Below, piece after piece: positions 2,987 through 43,909 of a DNA stretch of 64,000 bases (positions are counted from its first letter, which is position 1; each line of letters begins with the position of its first letter). Under the pieces are notes generated by a model. It was not told the DNA's origin. It was given only the letters and a program-made list of their open reading frames with translations, and ran no database searches. A program made the translations under genes and the position numbers. The stretch covers positions 4,892-68,891 of the forward strand of contig CAZJGG010000002.1 in assembly GCA_964545475.1 (NCBI GenBank). Direction: 5' to 3'. The stretch comes from an uncultured Eubacteriales bacterium. Lineage in GTDB: Bacteria; Bacillota; Clostridia; Lachnospirales; JAISER01.

Positions 2987-3049
2987 AAATTAAAAATGGT
3001 AACCCAAGCATACGTGTATTGGATTATCTTTTTTAAAATAAAAAATAGT

Positions 3050-3223
3050 CTGCTATACTCCTTAACCATATAAAATAGTACTGAGTTGCGAGCAAATTTT
3101 GCTTGTGGCAAGGAAGAGACGACGCCGTGTGCTAGCGGCACACAAGAAGTTGATGACGCAGTTCACAAGTAAAATTCGCCGCAAGGCAGTGCTATTTTAT
3201 GTGGTTAGGAGTATATATAGCAG
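3050..3223 (+). repeat. Long palindromic intergenic repeat, family A copy 1 (MITE/REP-like, about 174 nt)
   Basis: Terminal inverted repeats ctgctatactccttaacca...tggttaggagtatatatagcag. The whole element folds as an imperfect hairpin around gtgtgc-tagcg-gcacac. A near-identical inverted copy lies at 42171-42335. Confidence 0.85.
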
Positions 3224-3252
3224 CTAAACCATATTATATGAGGAGTGTGTTT

Positions 3253-4827
3253 ATGAAGAAGTTAGTTAGTTTAGTAATGGCAGGAGCACTTTGCCTTTCC
3301 GTTTTAACAGCATGTGGCTCAAACGGCGAAAAGCCTGCCCAACAGCAACAACAAGAGCAAAGCGGCGAAACCAAAGGAGAGGCAAATGAGGCAGAAAGCA
3401 CAAAAGTTAAAGATACTTTTATTGTTGCTACAAAAAGAGAACCTAAATCTTTAGTGCCTCATGGTTCAAACGATACAGGCACAAGCTTTGTTACAGCTCT
3501 TATTTACGATTCTTTACTTTCATTTGATAAAGACATGAACGTTATACCGTGTCTTGCAACAGATTGGGAGAAAAAAGATGACGTTACTTATGTTTTTAAC
3601 CTTAGAGATGATGTTTATTTCCATAACGGAGAAAAACTTACAGCAGAAGACGTTAAATTTACATTTGAAAAAGCTGCTAAATCCCCGGCTACAATTGCTC
3701 AGCTTGGCATGATTGACCCGGAGAAAACAAACGTTGTAGACGAAAATACAATTGAAATTGTACTTAGCAAGCCTTTTCCTCCAATTCTTAACTCTCTTGC
3801 CCTTGAAATTGCAAGCATTGTTAACAAAAAAGCCTTTGAAGAAGGCAACTTCGAGGAAAGCCCAATCGGCACAGGTCCTTTTACATTTAAACAATGGGTT
3901 TCCGGCGACAGACTTGAACTTAACGGAAACAAAGAATATTGGGGCGAAAAAGCGGCAATTAACACACTTGTTTTACGCCTTATTCCTGAAGCAACAACAA
4001 GAGCTATTGAAATTGAAACTGGTGGCGTAGACATGGCTTTAGGTTTATCCGATAGTGATACAATTAACTTGAGAGAAAATCCTAATGTAAACATGTATAC
4101 AGAAAACATTTTAAATACTTCATACATGTCATTTAACTGCTCTAAAGCACCTTTTGACAACGCTAAAGTGCGTGCGGCTATAACTTACGCTATAGACGCA
4201 AAAGCTGTTGCAGATGCGGCATCCTTTGGCTTGGCTGAACAATCGTTCTCTCCAATTGCGCCGGGAGTGTTCGGTTACTACAATCCGGGTCAAGTTTACG
4301 AATATAACCCAGAAAAAGCAAAAGAACTTTTGGCAGAAGCAGGCTTCCCAGACGGCTTTAAAACTACTTTAACTCAATCCGGCGACGACGCACAAGCAGA
4401 AATGATTCAAAACATGCTTGGTAAAGTTGGTATATCAGTTGAAATTAACTCTGTAGACTTTGCAAATTGGCTTGATGCTTTAGTTAACGGCAAACAAGAA
4501 ATGTATCTTGGCGGCTGGACAGTTTCTACAGCAGATGCTGACGGCGGCTTAAACGAACCATTTAATTCTAAAAACCACGGCGACGGCGGCAACCGTTCTT
4601 TCTATACAAACACTGAACTTGACGAAATTTTAGAAGCTGCCGCAGTTGAGCTTGATACTGAAAAACGTCTTGAACTTTACAAAGAAGCTCAAACAATTAT
4701 TGCTAACGATGCAGTTTATGTTAACCTAATGATTGGCCGTACTAATGTAGCAACTAAAAAAGAGGTTACAAACCTTGAGCTTATGCCAACACAAAACATT
4801 AAGCTTAACCTTATCAGATTTGAATAA
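3253..4827 (+). CDS. ABC transporter substrate-binding lipoprotein, family 5 (peptide/nickel/opine type)
   Basis: AGGAG at 3241 precedes the ATG at 3253. Signal peptide plus lipobox MKKLVSLVMAGALCLSVLTAC-GS. SBP_bac_5-like body (LLSFDKDMNVIPCLATDWE, GTGPFTF). Confidence 0.9.
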   Translation: MKKLVSLVMAGALCLSVLTACGSNGEKPAQQQQQEQSGETKGEANEAESTKVKDTFIVATKREPKSLVPHGSNDTGTSFVTALIYDSLLSFDKDMNVIPCLATDWEKKDDVTYVFNLRDDVYFHNGEKLTAEDVKFTFEKAAKSPATIAQLGMIDPEKTNVVDENTIEIVLSKPFPPILNSLALEIASIVNKKAFEEGNFEESPIGTGPFTFKQWVSGDRLELNGNKEYWGEKAAINTLVLRLIPEATTRAIEIETGGVDMALGLSDSDTINLRENPNVNMYTENILNTSYMSFNCSKAPFDNAKVRAAITYAIDAKAVADAASFGLAEQSFSPIAPGVFGYYNPGQVYEYNPEKAKELLAEAGFPDGFKTTLTQSGDDAQAEMIQNMLGKVGISVEINSVDFANWLDALVNGKQEMYLGGWTVSTADADGGLNEPFNSKNHGDGGNRSFYTNTELDEILEAAAVELDTEKRLELYKEAQTIIANDAVYVNLMIGRTNVATKKEVTNLELMPTQNIKLNLIRFE

Positions 4828-17905: not shown

Positions 17906-18071
17906 AGAGCCTGTTAAGAATCTCCATTTCAGTGTCTTTTCGGCAAATTTTTTGAATCGCTGCGTCAGTGGCAAACGCCCATACTTTTTATAGTATGAAC
18001 GTTCCCCACTTCCTTTCGATTCAAAAAATTTGCTCAAAAATCCACTAAAAGCGAGATTCTGAACTGGCTCT
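17906..18071 (-). repeat. Long palindromic intergenic repeat, family C copy 1 (about 166 nt; core motif on minus strand)
   Basis: Termini agagcctgttaagaatctc / gagattctgaactggctct. About 80 percent similar by eye to the inverted copy at 28770-28920. Lies inside the arg operon between argB and argD. Confidence 0.8.
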
Positions 18072-19266: not shown

Positions 19267-19394
19267 TTAAGAGCTTATCCTTATTTATTTGGGGATAAGC
19301 TCTTAACAAAGTCAATTAATTTTCAGCGAGTAAAGTTTGCTGTACTTTTTGCACAAATGCATACATGGTATTGTTTTTTGTGCAAAAAGTACAG
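19267..19394. repeat. Two long perfect palindromes between argD and carA
   Basis: Hairpin 1 has 14-bp arms, ttaagagcttatcc (19267-19280) / ggataagctcttaa (19293-19306). Hairpin 2 has 18-bp arms, ctgtactttttgcacaaa (19340-19357) / tttgtgcaaaaagtacag (19377-19394). Neither has a clear T-tract. Confidence 0.75.
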
Positions 19395-23717: not shown

Positions 23718-23720
23718 TTT

Positions 23721-23784
23721 AACGTGAGTTCGACGAAGTCGAAAAGCCGCTTTAGCGTCTTAGTTGCGGAGCAATTCTCATGTT
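23721..23784 (+). repeat. 64-nt intergenic repeat, family D copy 1
   Basis: aacgtgagttcgacgaagtcgaaaagccgctttagcgtcttagttgcggagcaattctcatgtt. Termini aacgtgag/ctca(c/t)gtt are inverted, with internal mini-hairpins ttcgac-gaa-gtcgaa and ccgc-ttta-gcg. Further copies at 26986 and 42126. Confidence 0.85.
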
Positions 23785-23887
23785 ATTTATAAAAAAATAT
23801 GGCAAAAATAATTATATAACGTTATACTGTTATTAGAGCGATTTGATAAAATTAAATCAGAAACAGTATTGGTAAAGGGTGTTTTTT

Positions 23888-25700: not shown

Positions 25701-26987
25701 ATGGAGAAAAACAATTTAGCACCTACAAATGACAATGCTACTAACAGAGTACCGGAAAACGAGAAAAAGAGTACTTTTGATGTTGCGATTGTAGCGGCAG
25801 GTTTTTGTATTTGTATGTCGGGCTTGTTTACAGGCGCGTCCATGGCAATGGGGTTTAATTTAACCCAAGCAATTATTGCCGGAGTTATTGGTAACACAAT
25901 TTTACTTATTTACGGCGGCGCAATCGGTATGGCAGGCGCAAAAGAAGGTGTTGCTACAGCAATGCTTGCAAGGCACAGCTTCGGGCGTCAAGGTTCTAAA
26001 ATAATCGGGCTTGTACTGGCTTTAACAATGTTAGGCTGGTTCTCAGTTCAAGTAGGCTTTTTCGGCGACACAATCCATGCAATGTTTCCTAATGGGGGAT
26101 TTATAACTACACCATCAGTAGCAGCGTTTTGGGGCGGTATTTTAATGCTTCTTACAGCTTACTTCGGTTACAAAGGGTTAAGCCTTCTTTCAAAAATTGC
26201 AATACCACTTATTACAATTACTTCAATTATCGGTATTGCTGCAGCAGTTAACAAAGCAGGGGGATGGCCGGCGTTAATCGCAATGCAACCTCCACAACCA
26301 TTGTCAATATCTGCTGGTGTTGTTATGGTTGTTGGTTCTTTCGCAGGTGGTGCTTCTGCTCAAGCAGATATATCACGCTATGCAAAAAGCCCTAAAGCTT
26401 CTTGGATTGCAACAATTGTAGGTTACCTTATAGCAAACCTTTTTATAATAACAGCAGGGTTTATTACAAATATGGCAACAGGCGCAGGGGATTTACCAGC
26501 GGCAATGCTTGCTCTTGGCTTAGGCTTCCCAGCGTTAATAGTTCTTATCGGTGCACAGTGGACAACAAACGACAACAACCTTTATACTGCGGCACTTGGC
26601 TTAAGTAATATTATTAAAGTTAAAAAGTCTTACATTACAATTACAACAGGTATATTAGCAACGATTGTTGGTGCGGCAGGGCTTTCTAACTATTTTGTTG
26701 ATTGGCTTGTAATTTTAGGTATAGGCGTTCCTCCAATGGCAGGCATCATCTTAGCAGACTATTTCTTTATAAAAGGTCAGAAATATCAATACGGTCCGGG
26801 AACAAAATATGTATCATGGAACGGACTTGCATTCATTAGCTGGATAATAGCATGTATCGTAGGTTTCGTAGTTAAATGGGGAATCGGTTCAATAAACTCA
26901 TTGGTTGTAGGCCTTGTTGTATATATTGTGCTTATGAAAACAGTGGGACAAAACAACACAGGTATGATTGGCGAAGATATAGAATAA
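25701..26987 (+). CDS. NCS1-family nucleobase permease (cytosine/purine permease CodB-like)
   Basis: About 12 predicted TM segments. The N-terminal region and overall composition look like CodB-type purine-cytosine permeases. 428 aa. Confidence 0.75.
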   Translation: MEKNNLAPTNDNATNRVPENEKKSTFDVAIVAAGFCICMSGLFTGASMAMGFNLTQAIIAGVIGNTILLIYGGAIGMAGAKEGVATAMLARHSFGRQGSKIIGLVLALTMLGWFSVQVGFFGDTIHAMFPNGGFITTPSVAAFWGGILMLLTAYFGYKGLSLLSKIAIPLITITSIIGIAAAVNKAGGWPALIAMQPPQPLSISAGVVMVVGSFAGGASAQADISRYAKSPKASWIATIVGYLIANLFIITAGFITNMATGAGDLPAAMLALGLGFPALIVLIGAQWTTNDNNLYTAALGLSNIIKVKKSYITITTGILATIVGAAGLSNYFVDWLVILGIGVPPMAGIILADYFFIKGQKYQYGPGTKYVSWNGLAFISWIIACIVGFVVKWGIGSINSLVVGLVVYIVLMKTVGQNNTGMIGEDIE

Positions 26988-27050
26988 CGTGACTTCGACG
27001 AAGTCGAAAAGCCGCTTTAGCGGATTAATTGCGGAGCGATTCTCACGTTA
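26986..27050 (+). repeat. 64-nt intergenic repeat, family D copy 2 (same orientation as copy 1)
   Basis: aacgtgacttcgacgaagtcgaaaagccgctttagcggattaattgcggagcgattctcacgtt. It begins inside the permease stop codon and lies 28 nt upstream of the next gene. Confidence 0.85.
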
Positions 27051-28769: not shown

Positions 28770-28920
28770 TAGAGTCTGTTCAGAATCAAGCTTTTGGTGG
28801 ATTTTTGAGTAAATTTTTTGAGGCAACCGTTAAAGTGGTATCTTTGTGCAAGGAGCCGCTGACGTAGCAATTCGGAAAATTTGACAAAAAGACGCCAAAA
28901 TGGAGATTCTGAACAGGCTC
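28770..28920 (+). repeat. Long palindromic intergenic repeat, family C copy 2 (about 151 nt; core motif on plus strand)
   Basis: Termini agagtctgttcagaatc / gagattctgaacaggctct, inverted relative to the copy at 17906-18071. Confidence 0.8.
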
Positions 28921-28932
28921 TATAGGCAAAAT

Positions 28933-34851: not shown

Positions 34852-35017
34852 TATACTCCTTAAGGCACAAATTTGCAAAGTAAAAACGGCTAAAATCTTA
34901 AACTGCTGCGTCAGCTCCTCCTAGCTTGCCCCTTGGCAAGCGTCGTCGTCGCTTCCTTGCATTTTATGATTTTATCTCGTTTTTCCTTTTGCAAATTCAC
35001 ACCTTAATGAGTATATA
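34852..35017 (-). repeat. Long palindromic intergenic repeat, family B (about 166 nt; core motif on minus strand)
   Basis: Termini tatactccttaaggcacaaatttgcaaag / cttttgcaaattcacaccttaatgagtata. Shares the TATACTCCTTAA ends and the central core with family A. Confidence 0.8.
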
Positions 35018-41582: not shown

Positions 41583-41939
41583 CTAGTTGTTGACACGTAC
41601 ACCCTCAACAAATATATTTATTTTTTCCACGTTTATACCGGTATACTCCTCAACTTTGTATTTTACAGTTGAAATTAACGTATCGGCAATTGCGGAAATA
41701 TTTGTTCCGTATTCAACAATAATGTGCAAGTCAATAATAACAGCGTCTTCGTTATAGCTGAATGTAATTCCTTTTGTAAGGCTTTCTCTCTTTAATAGCT
41801 GTACAAGACCGTCTTTTACGTTTTTTGCCGCCATGCCGACAATGCCGTAGCAGTCCATAGCTGCAAGCCCTGCGATCCTTACTATAACTTCATTATCTAT
41901 AGTAATTGTTCCATATTCGTTCTTAATTTTAGATGGCAT
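41583..41939 (-). CDS. Asp23/Gls24-family envelope stress protein
   Basis: GTITIDNEVIVRIAGLAAMDCYGIVGM is typical of the Asp23 family. Lies upstream of yloV, as in Bacillus yloU-yloV. Confidence 0.9.
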   Translation of the reverse strand: MPSKIKNEYGTITIDNEVIVRIAGLAAMDCYGIVGMAAKNVKDGLVQLLKRESLTKGITFSYNEDAVIIDLHIIVEYGTNISAIADTLISTVKYKVEEYTGINVEKINIFVEGVRVNN

Positions 41940-42125: not shown

Positions 42126-42152
42126 TAACGTGAGTTCGACGAAGTCGAAAAG
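42126..42152 (+). repeat. Truncated copy of family D repeat (left half only)
   Basis: aacgtgagttcgacgaagtcgaaaagc matches D1/D2 over 27 nt and then diverges, about 18 nt before family A copy 2. Confidence 0.75.
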
Positions 42153-42170
42153 CTGTTTATGTTTTTGCAA

Positions 42171-42335
42171 ATACACTCCTTAACCACATAAAATAGCACT
42201 GCCTTGCGGCGAATTTTACTTGTGGACTACGTCATCAACTTCTTGTGTGCCGCTAGCACACGGCGTCGTCTCTTCCTTGCCACAAGCAAAATTTGCTCGC
42301 AACTCAGTACCATTTTATATGATTAAGGAGTATAG
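42171..42335 (-). repeat. Long palindromic intergenic repeat, family A copy 2 (inverted relative to copy 1)
   Basis: The reverse complement of 3050-3223 matches with about six differences over about 165 nt by my count. Confidence 0.85.
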
Positions 42336-42460
42336 CTATCTATTCATTGTGAGCTGGGCAAAGCAAAAAGCCGCTTAAGCGGCTTTAATTAAGGGGCGTG
42401 TTTACATCTTTTTGAAATTTTTTTATCAATATTCAACACGCCCTTATTAAATTGTTCTCT

Positions 42461-43909
42461 TTATTTATTATCTTTTAATTTTAAATATAATTCCAAATAC
42501 TTTTTAGCAGATGCTTTCCAAGAAAAATCGCATTCCATGCTGTTTTTTATAACCTGCTCCCAGTCTTCCGGGTAATTATAAAAACAGTTTAATGCTTCTT
42601 TAACTGCCCACATTAACCCACTTGCAAGATAATCTTCAAAAATGAAACCGTTACCTTTTTTTGTAGTATAATTATATTGGGTAACCGTATCTGTAAGTCC
42701 TCCTGTTTTCCTTACTATAGGAACTGTACCGTATCTCATAGCAAATAACTGGCCAAGACCGCAGGGCTCGAATAGAGAAGGCATTAAAAACATATCAGAA
42801 CCGGCATAAATTTTTTGCGCTAAGTCTCCGCTGAAAAAAGTATTTGCGCTTATTCTGTCAGGGTAAAGCCATTGTGTGTGCTTAAATAGATGCTCATAAC
42901 GGCCGTCTCCCGTTCCCAAAACTACAATCTGAACGTCCATGTTCATTAACTCTTCTAGGCATACCGCAACAATATCAAGCCCCTTTTGATCCACCAGCCT
43001 TGAAATAATGCTGATTAACGGCTTATCACAAACAGGCAGCCCCAAATGTTTCTGTAAAGCATATTTATTTTTCTTCTTATTTTCTAAGCTATCTTTATCG
43101 TAATTTGCAAAAAGCCTTGTATCGGTTTTGGGGTCATTTTGTTCAACGTCTATTCCGTTTAATATACCTGTAAGCTTATGGTTGCACTGGCGCAAAAGAC
43201 CGTCCATGCCAAAGCCGTATTCCTCTGTTTGAATTTCTTTTGCGTAAGTTTCGGAAACTGTTGTAACCGCATCGGCATAAACTAAGCCGCCTTTCATAAA
43301 GCTTACTCTGCCGTAAAATTCAAGCTTATCCGGCGTGAAATAACCGTTGTTTAAGTCCACATGGTCTAAATATCCTTTTGTAAAGTTGCCCTGATACTGT
43401 AAATTGTGTATTGTAAAAACAGATTTCATATCATGGTAAAAAATAAAGCCTCCGTAATTATCACGTAAGTAAACTGGCCCAAGACCTGTTTGCCAATCGT
43501 TAAAATGGATAATATCCGGTTTAAACTCTATAACATTTAAAAGCTCTATAGAAGCTTTTGTAAAAAAAGCAAACCTTTCATCATCGTCCCAAAAGCCGTA
43601 AAAACCTTCTCTGCCGAAATAAAAATCGTTTTCAATTAAATATGTTGGGGTTTCATCATCAATTGTATAAATAGAACAGGACTGGTTACGCCAGCTTAAT
43701 CTTATTACAAAAGAATCAACATATTCTAATCCTTTTAATAACTTTTCATCAATAAGGCTGTATTTTGGGAAAACAATGCGGACGTCTGCGCCTAACCTTT
43801 TTAGTTCTTTAGGAAGAGAGCCTATAACGTCCCCAAGCCCTCCGCTTTTTGCATATGGGGTAATTTCCGTAGCAACAAATAAAACCTTTAAATCAGATAT
43901 ATCAGACAT
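42461..43909 (-). CDS. glgA: Glycogen synthase (ADP-glucose type)
   Basis: N-terminal EITPYAKSGGLGDV and the C-terminal GT5 region MPSLFEPCGLGQL. Confidence 0.95.
   Translation of the reverse strand: MSDISDLKVLFVATEITPYAKSGGLGDVIGSLPKELKRLGADVRIVFPKYSLIDEKLLKGLEYVDSFVIRLSWRNQSCSIYTIDDETPTYLIENDFYFGREGFYGFWDDDERFAFFTKASIELLNVIEFKPDIIHFNDWQTGLGPVYLRDNYGGFIFYHDMKSVFTIHNLQYQGNFTKGYLDHVDLNNGYFTPDKLEFYGRVSFMKGGLVYADAVTTVSETYAKEIQTEEYGFGMDGLLRQCNHKLTGILNGIDVEQNDPKTDTRLFANYDKDSLENKKKNKYALQKHLGLPVCDKPLISIISRLVDQKGLDIVAVCLEELMNMDVQIVVLGTGDGRYEHLFKHTQWLYPDRISANTFFSGDLAQKIYAGSDMFLMPSLFEPCGLGQLFAMRYGTVPIVRKTGGLTDTVTQYNYTTKKGNGFIFEDYLASGLMWAVKEALNCFYNYPEDWEQVIKNSMECDFSWKASAKKYLELYLKLKDNK

Follow-up and report, generated by a model that had tools for sequence, protein, structure and literature searches.

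Among the small hairpin repeats described in bacteria, the Correia elements of Neisseria are the closest analogue of the element considered here, named family A, a non-coding palindrome of about 162 bp that occurs twice in a 64,000-nt stretch (the window, i.e. the whole stretch of DNA analysed) of contig CAZJGG010000002.1 from an uncultured Eubacteriales bacterium (NCBI GenBank assembly GCA_964545475.1), and yet family A is not a member of that group. The Correia repeat enclosed elements (CREE, or nemis) fall into size classes of 153-157, 104-108 and 69-73 bp (PMC2649163); their ends read TATAG[CT]GGATTAAC, their core is directional, their hairpin RNA is cut by RNase III and their transposase is not known (PMC2649163; PMC10969869). 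Family A and its relatives are likewise small non-coding hairpins with full-length and deleted classes, here of 160-164 nt together with a 63-nt form, which is a matter of resemblance only. Long CREE forms are further marked by an IHF-binding site, and none was identified here, no binding-site model having been applied. Both ends begin with TATA....TTAAC in the two groups (here TATACTCCTTAAC), and they further share a directional core, tens to hundreds of gene-adjacent copies, a position at gene starts, hairpin transcripts (predicted for family A) and ends able to create promoter boxes. Regarding the differences, the CREE terminus pattern TATAG[CT]GGATTAA(CAAAAA/ATTTAAA)..., searched with up to three mismatches, gave 0 matches, only TATA and TTAAC being common, whereas the host belongs to the Clostridia and not to Neisseria, the arms and core are unrelated, and the termini carry a Shine-Dalgarno (SD) sequence instead of promoter elements, family C3 excepted (see below). 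In addition, neither PMC2649163 nor PMC10969869 mentions for CREE a strong G.U strand polarity like that of family A.

The ERIC elements (IRU) and related repeat units of enterobacteria (RU-1 of 127 bp and RU-2 of 168 bp) measure 100-170 bp and form imperfect palindromes within intergenic DNA that is transcribed, with a transposase that is not known and with orientation-dependent effects on mRNA stability (PMC10969869; PMC2759123). Their sequence and hosts are unrelated to those of family A, and they were set apart from it without alignment.

MITEs, or miniature inverted-repeat transposable elements, derived from insertion sequences (ISs) of the IS630/Tc1-mariner type, for example RUP of Streptococcus pneumoniae and Nezha of cyanobacteria, combine terminal inverted repeats (TIRs), insertion at TA with its duplication and non-coding multiplication; such families have a known parent IS whose ends are identical to theirs, and their interior is not bound to a conserved loop and length. 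Family A shares the TIRs, the TA flanks and the multiplication without coding capacity, the TA duplication being here presumed, but no parent IS sharing its ends turned up with pattern gaps of at most 600 nt or in plasmid and phage collections, and the interior is constrained to a loop and a length. Several generic features of a MITE are seen as well, i.e. a small non-coding element with inverted termini TATACTCCTTAAC / GTTAAGGAGTATA and many dispersed near-identical copies. With the REPIN/RAYT systems and the attC sites of integrons, the likeness lies in hairpin repeats with one active folded DNA strand, in conservation mainly at the hairpin base and in compensating stems. However, family A is one continuous hairpin of ~160 nt with TATACTCC ends, devoid of the GTAG head and of the 20-40-nt REP unit. 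The consensus of the R''/R' boxes of attC is RYYYAAC / GTTRRRY, which the inner ends CCTTAAC...GTTAAGG resemble, but the outer consensus positions are missed, there is no cassette array or integrase context, and the copies, of mixed orientation, are scattered among housekeeping operons at distances of 6-15 kb; the TA flanks and perfect TIRs present here also set family A apart from both REPIN and attC. As for PATE, derived from IS200/IS605, it is characterised by the lack of TIRs, differing subterminal hairpins and no duplication, which does not apply to family A with its perfect TIRs and single hairpin. The likeness of family A to ERIC-type repeats, IS630-type MITEs, REPINs and attC sites is confined to single features.

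The two copies of family A

Family A is quite probably a non-coding, non-autonomous MITE of ~162 bp, which would have multiplied recently in this genome and would belong to an older, diversified superfamily. The two copies of the window, at 3054-3215 on the + strand and 42172-42334 on the - strand, are 96% identical, with 6 differences over 163 aligned columns (5 transitions and 1 single-base indel, the latter being one A lost from the right end of copy 1). This agrees with the original prediction, made from the sequence alone, of a match with about six differences between the second locus and the first one read as its reverse complement; a repeat finder returns the two loci as a pair of 164 nt that is 96% complementary, and a 25-nt terminal probe has 3 sites in the window against 0.00 expected from shuffles. 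The scores below refer to a covariance model, R1, presented with the superfamily.

3054-3215, + strand: copy 1 of family A, 162 nt long, with its forward strand on +; model R1 score of 114.8 bits
42172-42334, - strand: family A copy 2, 163 nt, forward strand on -; 117.6 bits with model R1
3054-3066, + strand: left terminus of copy 1, TATACTCCTTAAC, the first TA being a possible target duplication and CTCCTT being anti-SD-like
3107-3113, + strand: conserved 5' half of the inner asymmetric loop of copy 1, GGCAAGG, with AGG invariant across families
3127-3143, + strand: GC-rich apex hairpin of copy 1, GTGTGCTAGCGGCACAC, with purine-rich unpaired strands on both sides
3155-3161, + strand: conserved 3' half of the inner loop of copy 1, GACGCAG, with ACG invariant across families
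3203-3215, + strand: right terminus of copy 1, GGTTAGGAGTATA, an outward-facing SD with one A fewer than the consensus GGTTAAGGAGTATA

Folded as RNA, each copy forms a single long imperfect hairpin of -85.3 kcal/mol (for copy 1, z -11.1 and 0/200 shuffles as good), as had been proposed, although the arms pair over ~55 bp each and not over an inverted repeat of ~30 nt. Likewise, the extent of 3050-3223 first given to the element stands for 3054-3215 but not for positions 3050-3053 and 3216-3223 (CTGC...TATAGCAG), which are a flank specific to copy 1 that extends the palindrome by chance. The predicted absence of coding capacity is corroborated, since family A contains only short open reading frames (ORFs) of 20-69 aa and the peptides from its open frames are in no called protein of a database of 5.8 billion clusters. 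Rfam 15, used at gathering and permissive thresholds over the whole window as well as loci L013 and L016, gave 0 matches at or above gathering, the best sub-threshold match being NrrF with 18 bits against a threshold of 60, and BLASTN of the element against plasmid and phage collections gave no match.

Copy number in the source genome

The depth data come from Logan contigs of four public gut-metagenome runs (one study) that contain the window, placed on both loci. Unique flanks have a depth of 28-64, against 556-1208 for a contig of 88-99 nt with the same sequence as the copy 2 core, that is a core/flank ratio of 19-23 in all four runs despite a two-fold variation in the abundance of the organism; the 88-nt core of copy 2 matches exactly the high-depth consensus contig from the metagenomes. 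The family A arms reach ~100x flank depth, even at a likeness of at least 90%. Many contigs with differing flanks start exactly at 3053/3054 or continue past ...GGAGTATA, and short-read contigs of glgA end ~30 nt inside the element, which is how a de Bruijn assembler behaves at a repeat. By this measure, ~20 copies have an identical 88-nt core and ~100 share the arms.

A wider superfamily in Clostridia

Patterns built on the arm sequences gave 0 matches in 185,579 GTDB representative genomes and in JGI metagenomes; the arms of family A are specific to this lineage. The pattern that worked was restricted to the 12-nt termini, 120-150 nt apart; it returned 8 loci in the genome collection as well as 2 contigs in IMG/VR. 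Six of the 8 loci belong to an Oscillospiraceae metagenome-assembled genome (MAG; WRHO01) and a seventh to a Defluviitaleaceae MAG (WRAA01), the last being a chance match. The seven true elements of the two MAGs measure 161-164 nt and, more generally, the pattern-found elements are 160-164-nt hairpins with identical 13-nt ends (TATACTCCTTAAC...GTTAAGGAGTATA) and unrelated arms. The chance match (L008, from a roe-deer rumen bacterium) was rejected as two divergent ribosome-binding sites scoring 8.7 bits. Model R1, built from the pattern-found elements and then scanned over the window and loci, recovers the known elements together with a variant called W3 (L014:5802-5950), a 63-nt internally deleted copy in which both termini are kept (L009:4702-4764) and three more elements in the window, listed hereafter.

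17906-18071, - strand: family B member B1, 166 nt, termini TAGAGCC.GTTCAGAATC, TA-flanked; 30.9 bits; between argB and argD, antisense to the operon
28770-28922, + strand: family B member B2, 153 nt, TA-flanked; 37.7 bits; past the stop codon of an SBP_bac_3 gene and ahead of the terminator of that gene
34852-35015, - strand: family C3 member, 164 nt, termini as in family A (TATACTCCTTAAG / TATACTCATTAAG) and different arms; 91.7 bits; in the spacer of divergent HlyD and Gate-domain genes

By read depth, family B is ~100-fold repeated and is even more abundant and much more diverse in this genome than family A, and family C3 has ~2-4 copies. Family B has the same inner loop and polarity as the rest of the superfamily and different termini; W3 has the centre of the WRHO family, again with different termini, and families A, C3, W, D and V have common termini with differing centres. 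In such combinations, the ends and the centre of these elements behave as separate modules. The superfamily length is mostly 160-164 nt, with a range of 149-166 nt, for a small sample of 16 elements and ~8 lineages.

Family C3 is the only one with good -35 boxes: its TTGCAA boxes are -35-like, point outward and lie 17 nt from each terminal TATA, so that each end with its flank forms an outward promoter-like site. One of these sites faces the Gate-domain gene, which starts at ~35028/35037. As for the two IMG/VR contigs, their elements (L016:2423-2582 and L015:9183-9343) adjoin genes of the host, adhE in one case and FMN reductase/glyoxalase in the other, with phage terminase or serine-recombinase genes alongside, and they would sit at or near prophage borders. 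A further candidate of the window at 19341-19393, in the argD-carA spacer (21.6 bits; a 53-nt perfect palindrome, GTACTTTTTGCACAAA...TTTGTGCAAAAAGTAC), looks like an ordinary palindrome that is probably unrelated.

The organism of the window is a Clostridia bacterium related to Defluviitaleaceae and belonging to a gut community; it is placed near Defluviitalea and Vallitalea by its CarB, the identity of which is 67-68% with Defluviitalea, 64% with Vallitalea and 70-74% with MAGs. Loci L019 (SRR10912416) and L018 (GCA_964474135.1) come from a related species (CarB 72% identical) that lives in the same metagenome as the organism of the window. The 16.5-kb L018 locus is devoid of the element, its syntenic arginine operon having a 52-nt argB-argD spacer without it. 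In a distant relative (L020), the syntenic gntR locus has, before the gene of the substrate-binding protein (SBP), a 200-nt AT-rich spacer with no match to the model. No superfamily member was found in the loci of relatives (L017-L020, ~38 kb).

Shared anatomy and strand polarity

When the elements are aligned on one strand, the common 13-nt termini are kept in five families, and all families have an invariant AGG within (G/A)CAAGG ~55 nt from the 5' end and, at ~55 nt from the 3' end, GACGCAG with its invariant ACG. All predicted folds oppose the two motifs as a 2x3 internal loop, C-AA-G / C-GCA-G, and the apex domain is either GC-rich or A/U-rich depending on the family. In the arms, 94.3% of the alignment cells are paired, against 42-49% in shifted registers, and double changes are found in 21 of 41 arm pairs compared with 8.7 +/- 1.8 in shuffles (0/500 reach the observed value); the arms are held paired by compensatory change.

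In 7 of 8 lineages, the fold of the strand bearing CAAGG...GACGCAG is more stable than that of its complement by 13-28 kcal/mol, the reason being that a mismatch in the arms is G.U on this forward strand and A.C on the other one. The counts of G.U and A.C on the forward strand are 56:20 overall (p = 4e-5) and 39:14 in the six less related families (p = 8e-4). For copy 2, the asymmetry between strands amounts to 25 kcal/mol with RNA parameters and 4.7 kcal/mol with DNA parameters. The orientation of the seed alignment was initially chosen by stability, but it is supported by the asymmetric motifs and by the independent recovery of family B and W3, both of which were found by the model without reference to stability and both of which exhibit the polarity. 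Among the six near-identical WRHO (family W) copies, new substitutions are unbiased (3 G.U vs 4 A.C), and the constraint would therefore act on multiplying lineages rather than on resident copies.

Insertion sites and Shine-Dalgarno ends

TA...TA bounds each of the 13 elements whose termini are of the TATACTCC type, no further direct repeat being present at any of them, and both family B copies are TA-flanked likewise. The copies are located in short, unrelated intergenic spacers, often exactly at gene boundaries as delineated with Pfam: B1 is separated by 8 nt from the preceding argB stop and by 15 nt from the following argD start, the L014 element lies 1 nt after the rplT stop, and the L009 element between the stop of an elongation factor G-like gene and the next ORF. 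The termini pair an SD (AAGGAG), which faces outward, with the anti-SD-like CTCCTT.

This arrangement is most telling in two loci. In L013, the ruvA stop overlaps the native SD (TAGGAG), which is followed by TG and the element, the outward AAGGAG end of the latter being located 7 nt before the ruvB ATG (AAGGAG-TATATAC-ATG); taking away the element and one TA leaves AGGAG-TGTATAC-ATG. In L011 (2808-3042), three signals stand directly 5' of a 163-nt element, namely a promoter with perfect boxes (TTGACA-17-TATAAT), an inverted-repeat operator of the ArsR type and the native SD GAGG, the arsR ATG being 4 nt 3' of it. The assumption of a TA duplication yields sensible empty sites in both L013 and L011, TATA being equally conceivable as element sequence. 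In these two loci, the element has been inserted into the spacer between SD and ATG, with its terminal AAGGAG now at the SD position, and the metagenome contig of a family A copy has the same SD-ATG arrangement (GGAGTATAGTTTGATGAAAATT). From this position, we infer that the terminal AAGGAG is used as a ribosome-binding site.

With respect to the neighbouring gene, 9 elements are co-directional, 4 antisense and 2 ambiguous, a bias that is not significant (p = 0.27), and the five members of the window point +, -, +, -, -. Since this bias is not significant, less weight is given to the idea of an RNA function that would maintain the resident copies.

Mode of multiplication and rival explanations

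If family A is a MITE as proposed above, an enzyme acting in trans would recognise the conserved termini and insert the element at TA with TA duplication, and multiplication would continue only in lineages where termini, inner loop and forward-strand fold are all retained, the resident copies then drifting neutrally. Insertion between SD and ATG would be tolerated because the outward AAGGAG supplies a replacement SD at the same spacing, as for ruvB in L013 and arsR in L011. Once co-transcribed, the RNA would form a hairpin of -60 to -95 kcal/mol, probably cut by a double-strand RNase (e.g. RNase III) or acting as a 5'/3' stabiliser; as the only SD of ruvB and arsR lies paired in a hairpin of -74 to -96 kcal/mol, some processing step seems needed. 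The recent, non-autonomous and MITE-like mobility suggested by the original prediction gains support from the copy number, the absence of coding capacity and the element-free syntenic spacer, from which we infer mobility itself. Nor is the element confined to two loci conserved in synteny, given its many copies and the element-free gntR-SBP spacer of a relative.

Several points weigh against this explanation. A TA target duplication is inseparable from invariant TATA ends that would be part of the element. Neither a transposase nor a longer element bearing these ends came to light, in a search that was not genome-wide and with pattern gaps of at most 600 nt. The strand polarity and the conserved inner loop are not explained by a DDE cut-and-paste MITE alone. 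No empty site of the same species was found, and no contig skips either copy in the four runs, which indicates that there is no empty allele in this population. Besides, the copy number is drawn from k-mer depth, which may include related organisms of the same community (L019 is in the same runs), although L018, the 16.5-kb locus of that relative, is free of the element.

A rival explanation, to which the polarity and the loop lend support, is that of an element moved or selected as a folded single strand, read at the C-AA-G/C-GCA-G loop and the termini by an enzyme of the HUH/RAYT or recombinase type, or else through an RNA intermediate, and not as double-stranded DNA moved by a DDE enzyme. 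REPINs, the ends of IS200/IS605 and the attC sites of integrons are parallels of this kind. The polarity extends to 7 of 8 lineages with its 56:20 excess of G.U over A.C, the non-palindromic inner loop is conserved in all families, including family B whose termini are different, the arms evolve by compensation, and the unbiased changes of the resident W copies place the constraint on multiplying lineages; the asymmetry is also large with RNA parameters and small with DNA ones. Nevertheless, perfect TIRs and an invariant TA...TA are a DDE signature (IS630/mariner-like or Correia-like), HUH elements having neither TIRs nor duplications, the GTAG-type REP head is absent, the mixed orientations within 40 kb (+, -, +, -, -) reveal no replication-strand bias, and no candidate enzyme was seen, which makes this explanation rather unlikely. 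Far less probable still is that the elements are regulatory RNA modules of the host, kept locus by locus as leader or intercistronic hairpins that would act on translation via SD sequestration or on mRNA decay, mobility being secondary or ancient. The pairing of SD and anti-SD-like sequences at the termini, the exact location of copies at operon gene boundaries (ruvA-ruvB, argB-argD, 1 nt after rplT, the arsR leader), the 9 co-directional copies out of 13 orientable ones and the forward strand favoured at the RNA level all speak for such a function, but the 9:4 bias is not significant, B1 and the L009 element run antisense to the operons in which they sit, a terminator precedes copy 2, the syntenic sites in relatives are empty and variation within families looks neutral. 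The ~20 near-identical cores point to a recent spread rather than to conservation locus by locus. A similarity due to chance or to the assembly, or else to two ordinary transcription terminators, would fit with two intergenic copies and with hairpins being common at gene ends, and yet the probability of such a reading is close to nil: the number of matches expected by chance is 0, four runs assembled independently in Logan all contain the element, and homologous elements occur in other genomes, three results that refute it; in addition, a terminator scan calls neither copy and no U-tract follows either of them.

Beyond family A itself, the superfamily can tentatively be seen as polar hairpin elements of Clostridia in which selection, and perhaps movement, would act on a single folded strand that an enzyme recognises via the C-AA-G/C-GCA-G loop, their SD/anti-SD ends making them portable modules for translation initiation and RNA processing that fit between the SD and start of a gene (ruvB, arsR) and leave it functional, a broader proposal which is doubtful.

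Gene context of the two copies

Pfam confirms the gene contexts originally recognised for the two copies, gntR/SBP and asp23/glgA. Copy 1 is located between a GntR/UTRA regulator gene (2237-2986) and an SBP_bac_5 gene followed by Opp-type permeases, and copy 2 between glgA (42461-43909, - strand) and asp23 (41583-41939, - strand), on the asp23-fakA side. Two neighbouring features matter for their expression.

3240-3255, + strand: own SD of the SBP gene, GAGGAG (3240-3245), and its start ATG (3253), 24 and 37 nt past the element end; product of 524 aa
42367-42386, - strand: glgA intrinsic terminator, upstream of copy 2 in the direction of transcription

The distance of 29 nt initially given between copy 1 and the SBP start is correct if counted from 3223, but is 37 nt from the true end at 3215. 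The sole promoter-like site near copy 1 is TTTAAA-16-TGcTATACT (3032-3059), the -10 box of which consists of the first six bases of the element, TATACT, and no outward promoter is found by consensus in the family A arms. Because the gap of 24 nt between the element and the SD is too short for a promoter, transcription of the transporter probably crosses copy 1 or starts within it. Most likely, copy 1 would thus lie in the leader of the Opp-type operon or would supply the -10 box of its promoter. More speculatively, a transcript from the 3032-3059 site would lack the 5' terminal 12 nt and begin with the hairpin, its 3' end remaining unpaired.

When the element is removed from the flanks of copy 1 and one TA is restored, a perfect palindrome appears, CTGCTA(TA)TAGCAG (3050-3057 / 3216-3223), which is likely to have been the insertion target. 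This palindrome is possibly an operator of the adjacent GntR-type regulator, split by the insertion. As for copy 2, it would be mostly outside the glgA transcript since the glgA terminator precedes it; it is also upstream of the asp23 promoter region and is probably silent or inert.

Implications for Clostridia genomes

Except for Staphylococcus aureus, the 2024 review of prokaryotic MITEs includes no family from Clostridia or other Firmicutes (PMC10969869), and a text search of papers for the terminus sequence retrieved only unrelated primers and short hairpin RNAs. The mobilising enzyme is still not known even for the Correia and ERIC elements; here, the 13-nt ends conserved across families of Clostridia, the fixed length and the polar strand provide handles for finding it, and the 63-nt form of L009 is analogous to the short Correia size classes. 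The SD-bearing ends suggest a way to colonise the tight junctions of compact operons harmlessly, for which arsR in L011 constitutes a clean natural test case of translation from the terminal SD of an element. Such elements alter the leaders of real genes, here those of an Opp-type peptide transporter, and can be mistaken in annotation for small RNAs, terminators or short ORFs. Moreover, repeats of this kind break short-read assemblies and therefore bias the MAGs of gut Clostridia.

Other repeats in the window

D1, a repeat of 66 nt that is unrelated to the superfamily and comprises two small hairpins (TAACGTGAG...CTCACGTTA), is found at 23720-23785 and 26985-27050 and partially at 42126-42153; the half copy beside copy 2 of family A has ~120x flank depth in the metagenome. 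A hairpin repeat of ~56 nt (AAGGGGCGTGTT...AACACGCCCTT) lies at 42388-42445, directly after the glgA stop, with ~130x flank depth, so that the glgA-asp23 spacer is a stack of three repeat families and a terminator. Over the window (1-64000), Rfam gave no tRNA, rRNA, riboswitch or leader at gathering score. Altogether, small palindromic repeats occur about once per 7 kb, with five superfamily members and at least two other repeat families in 64 kb.

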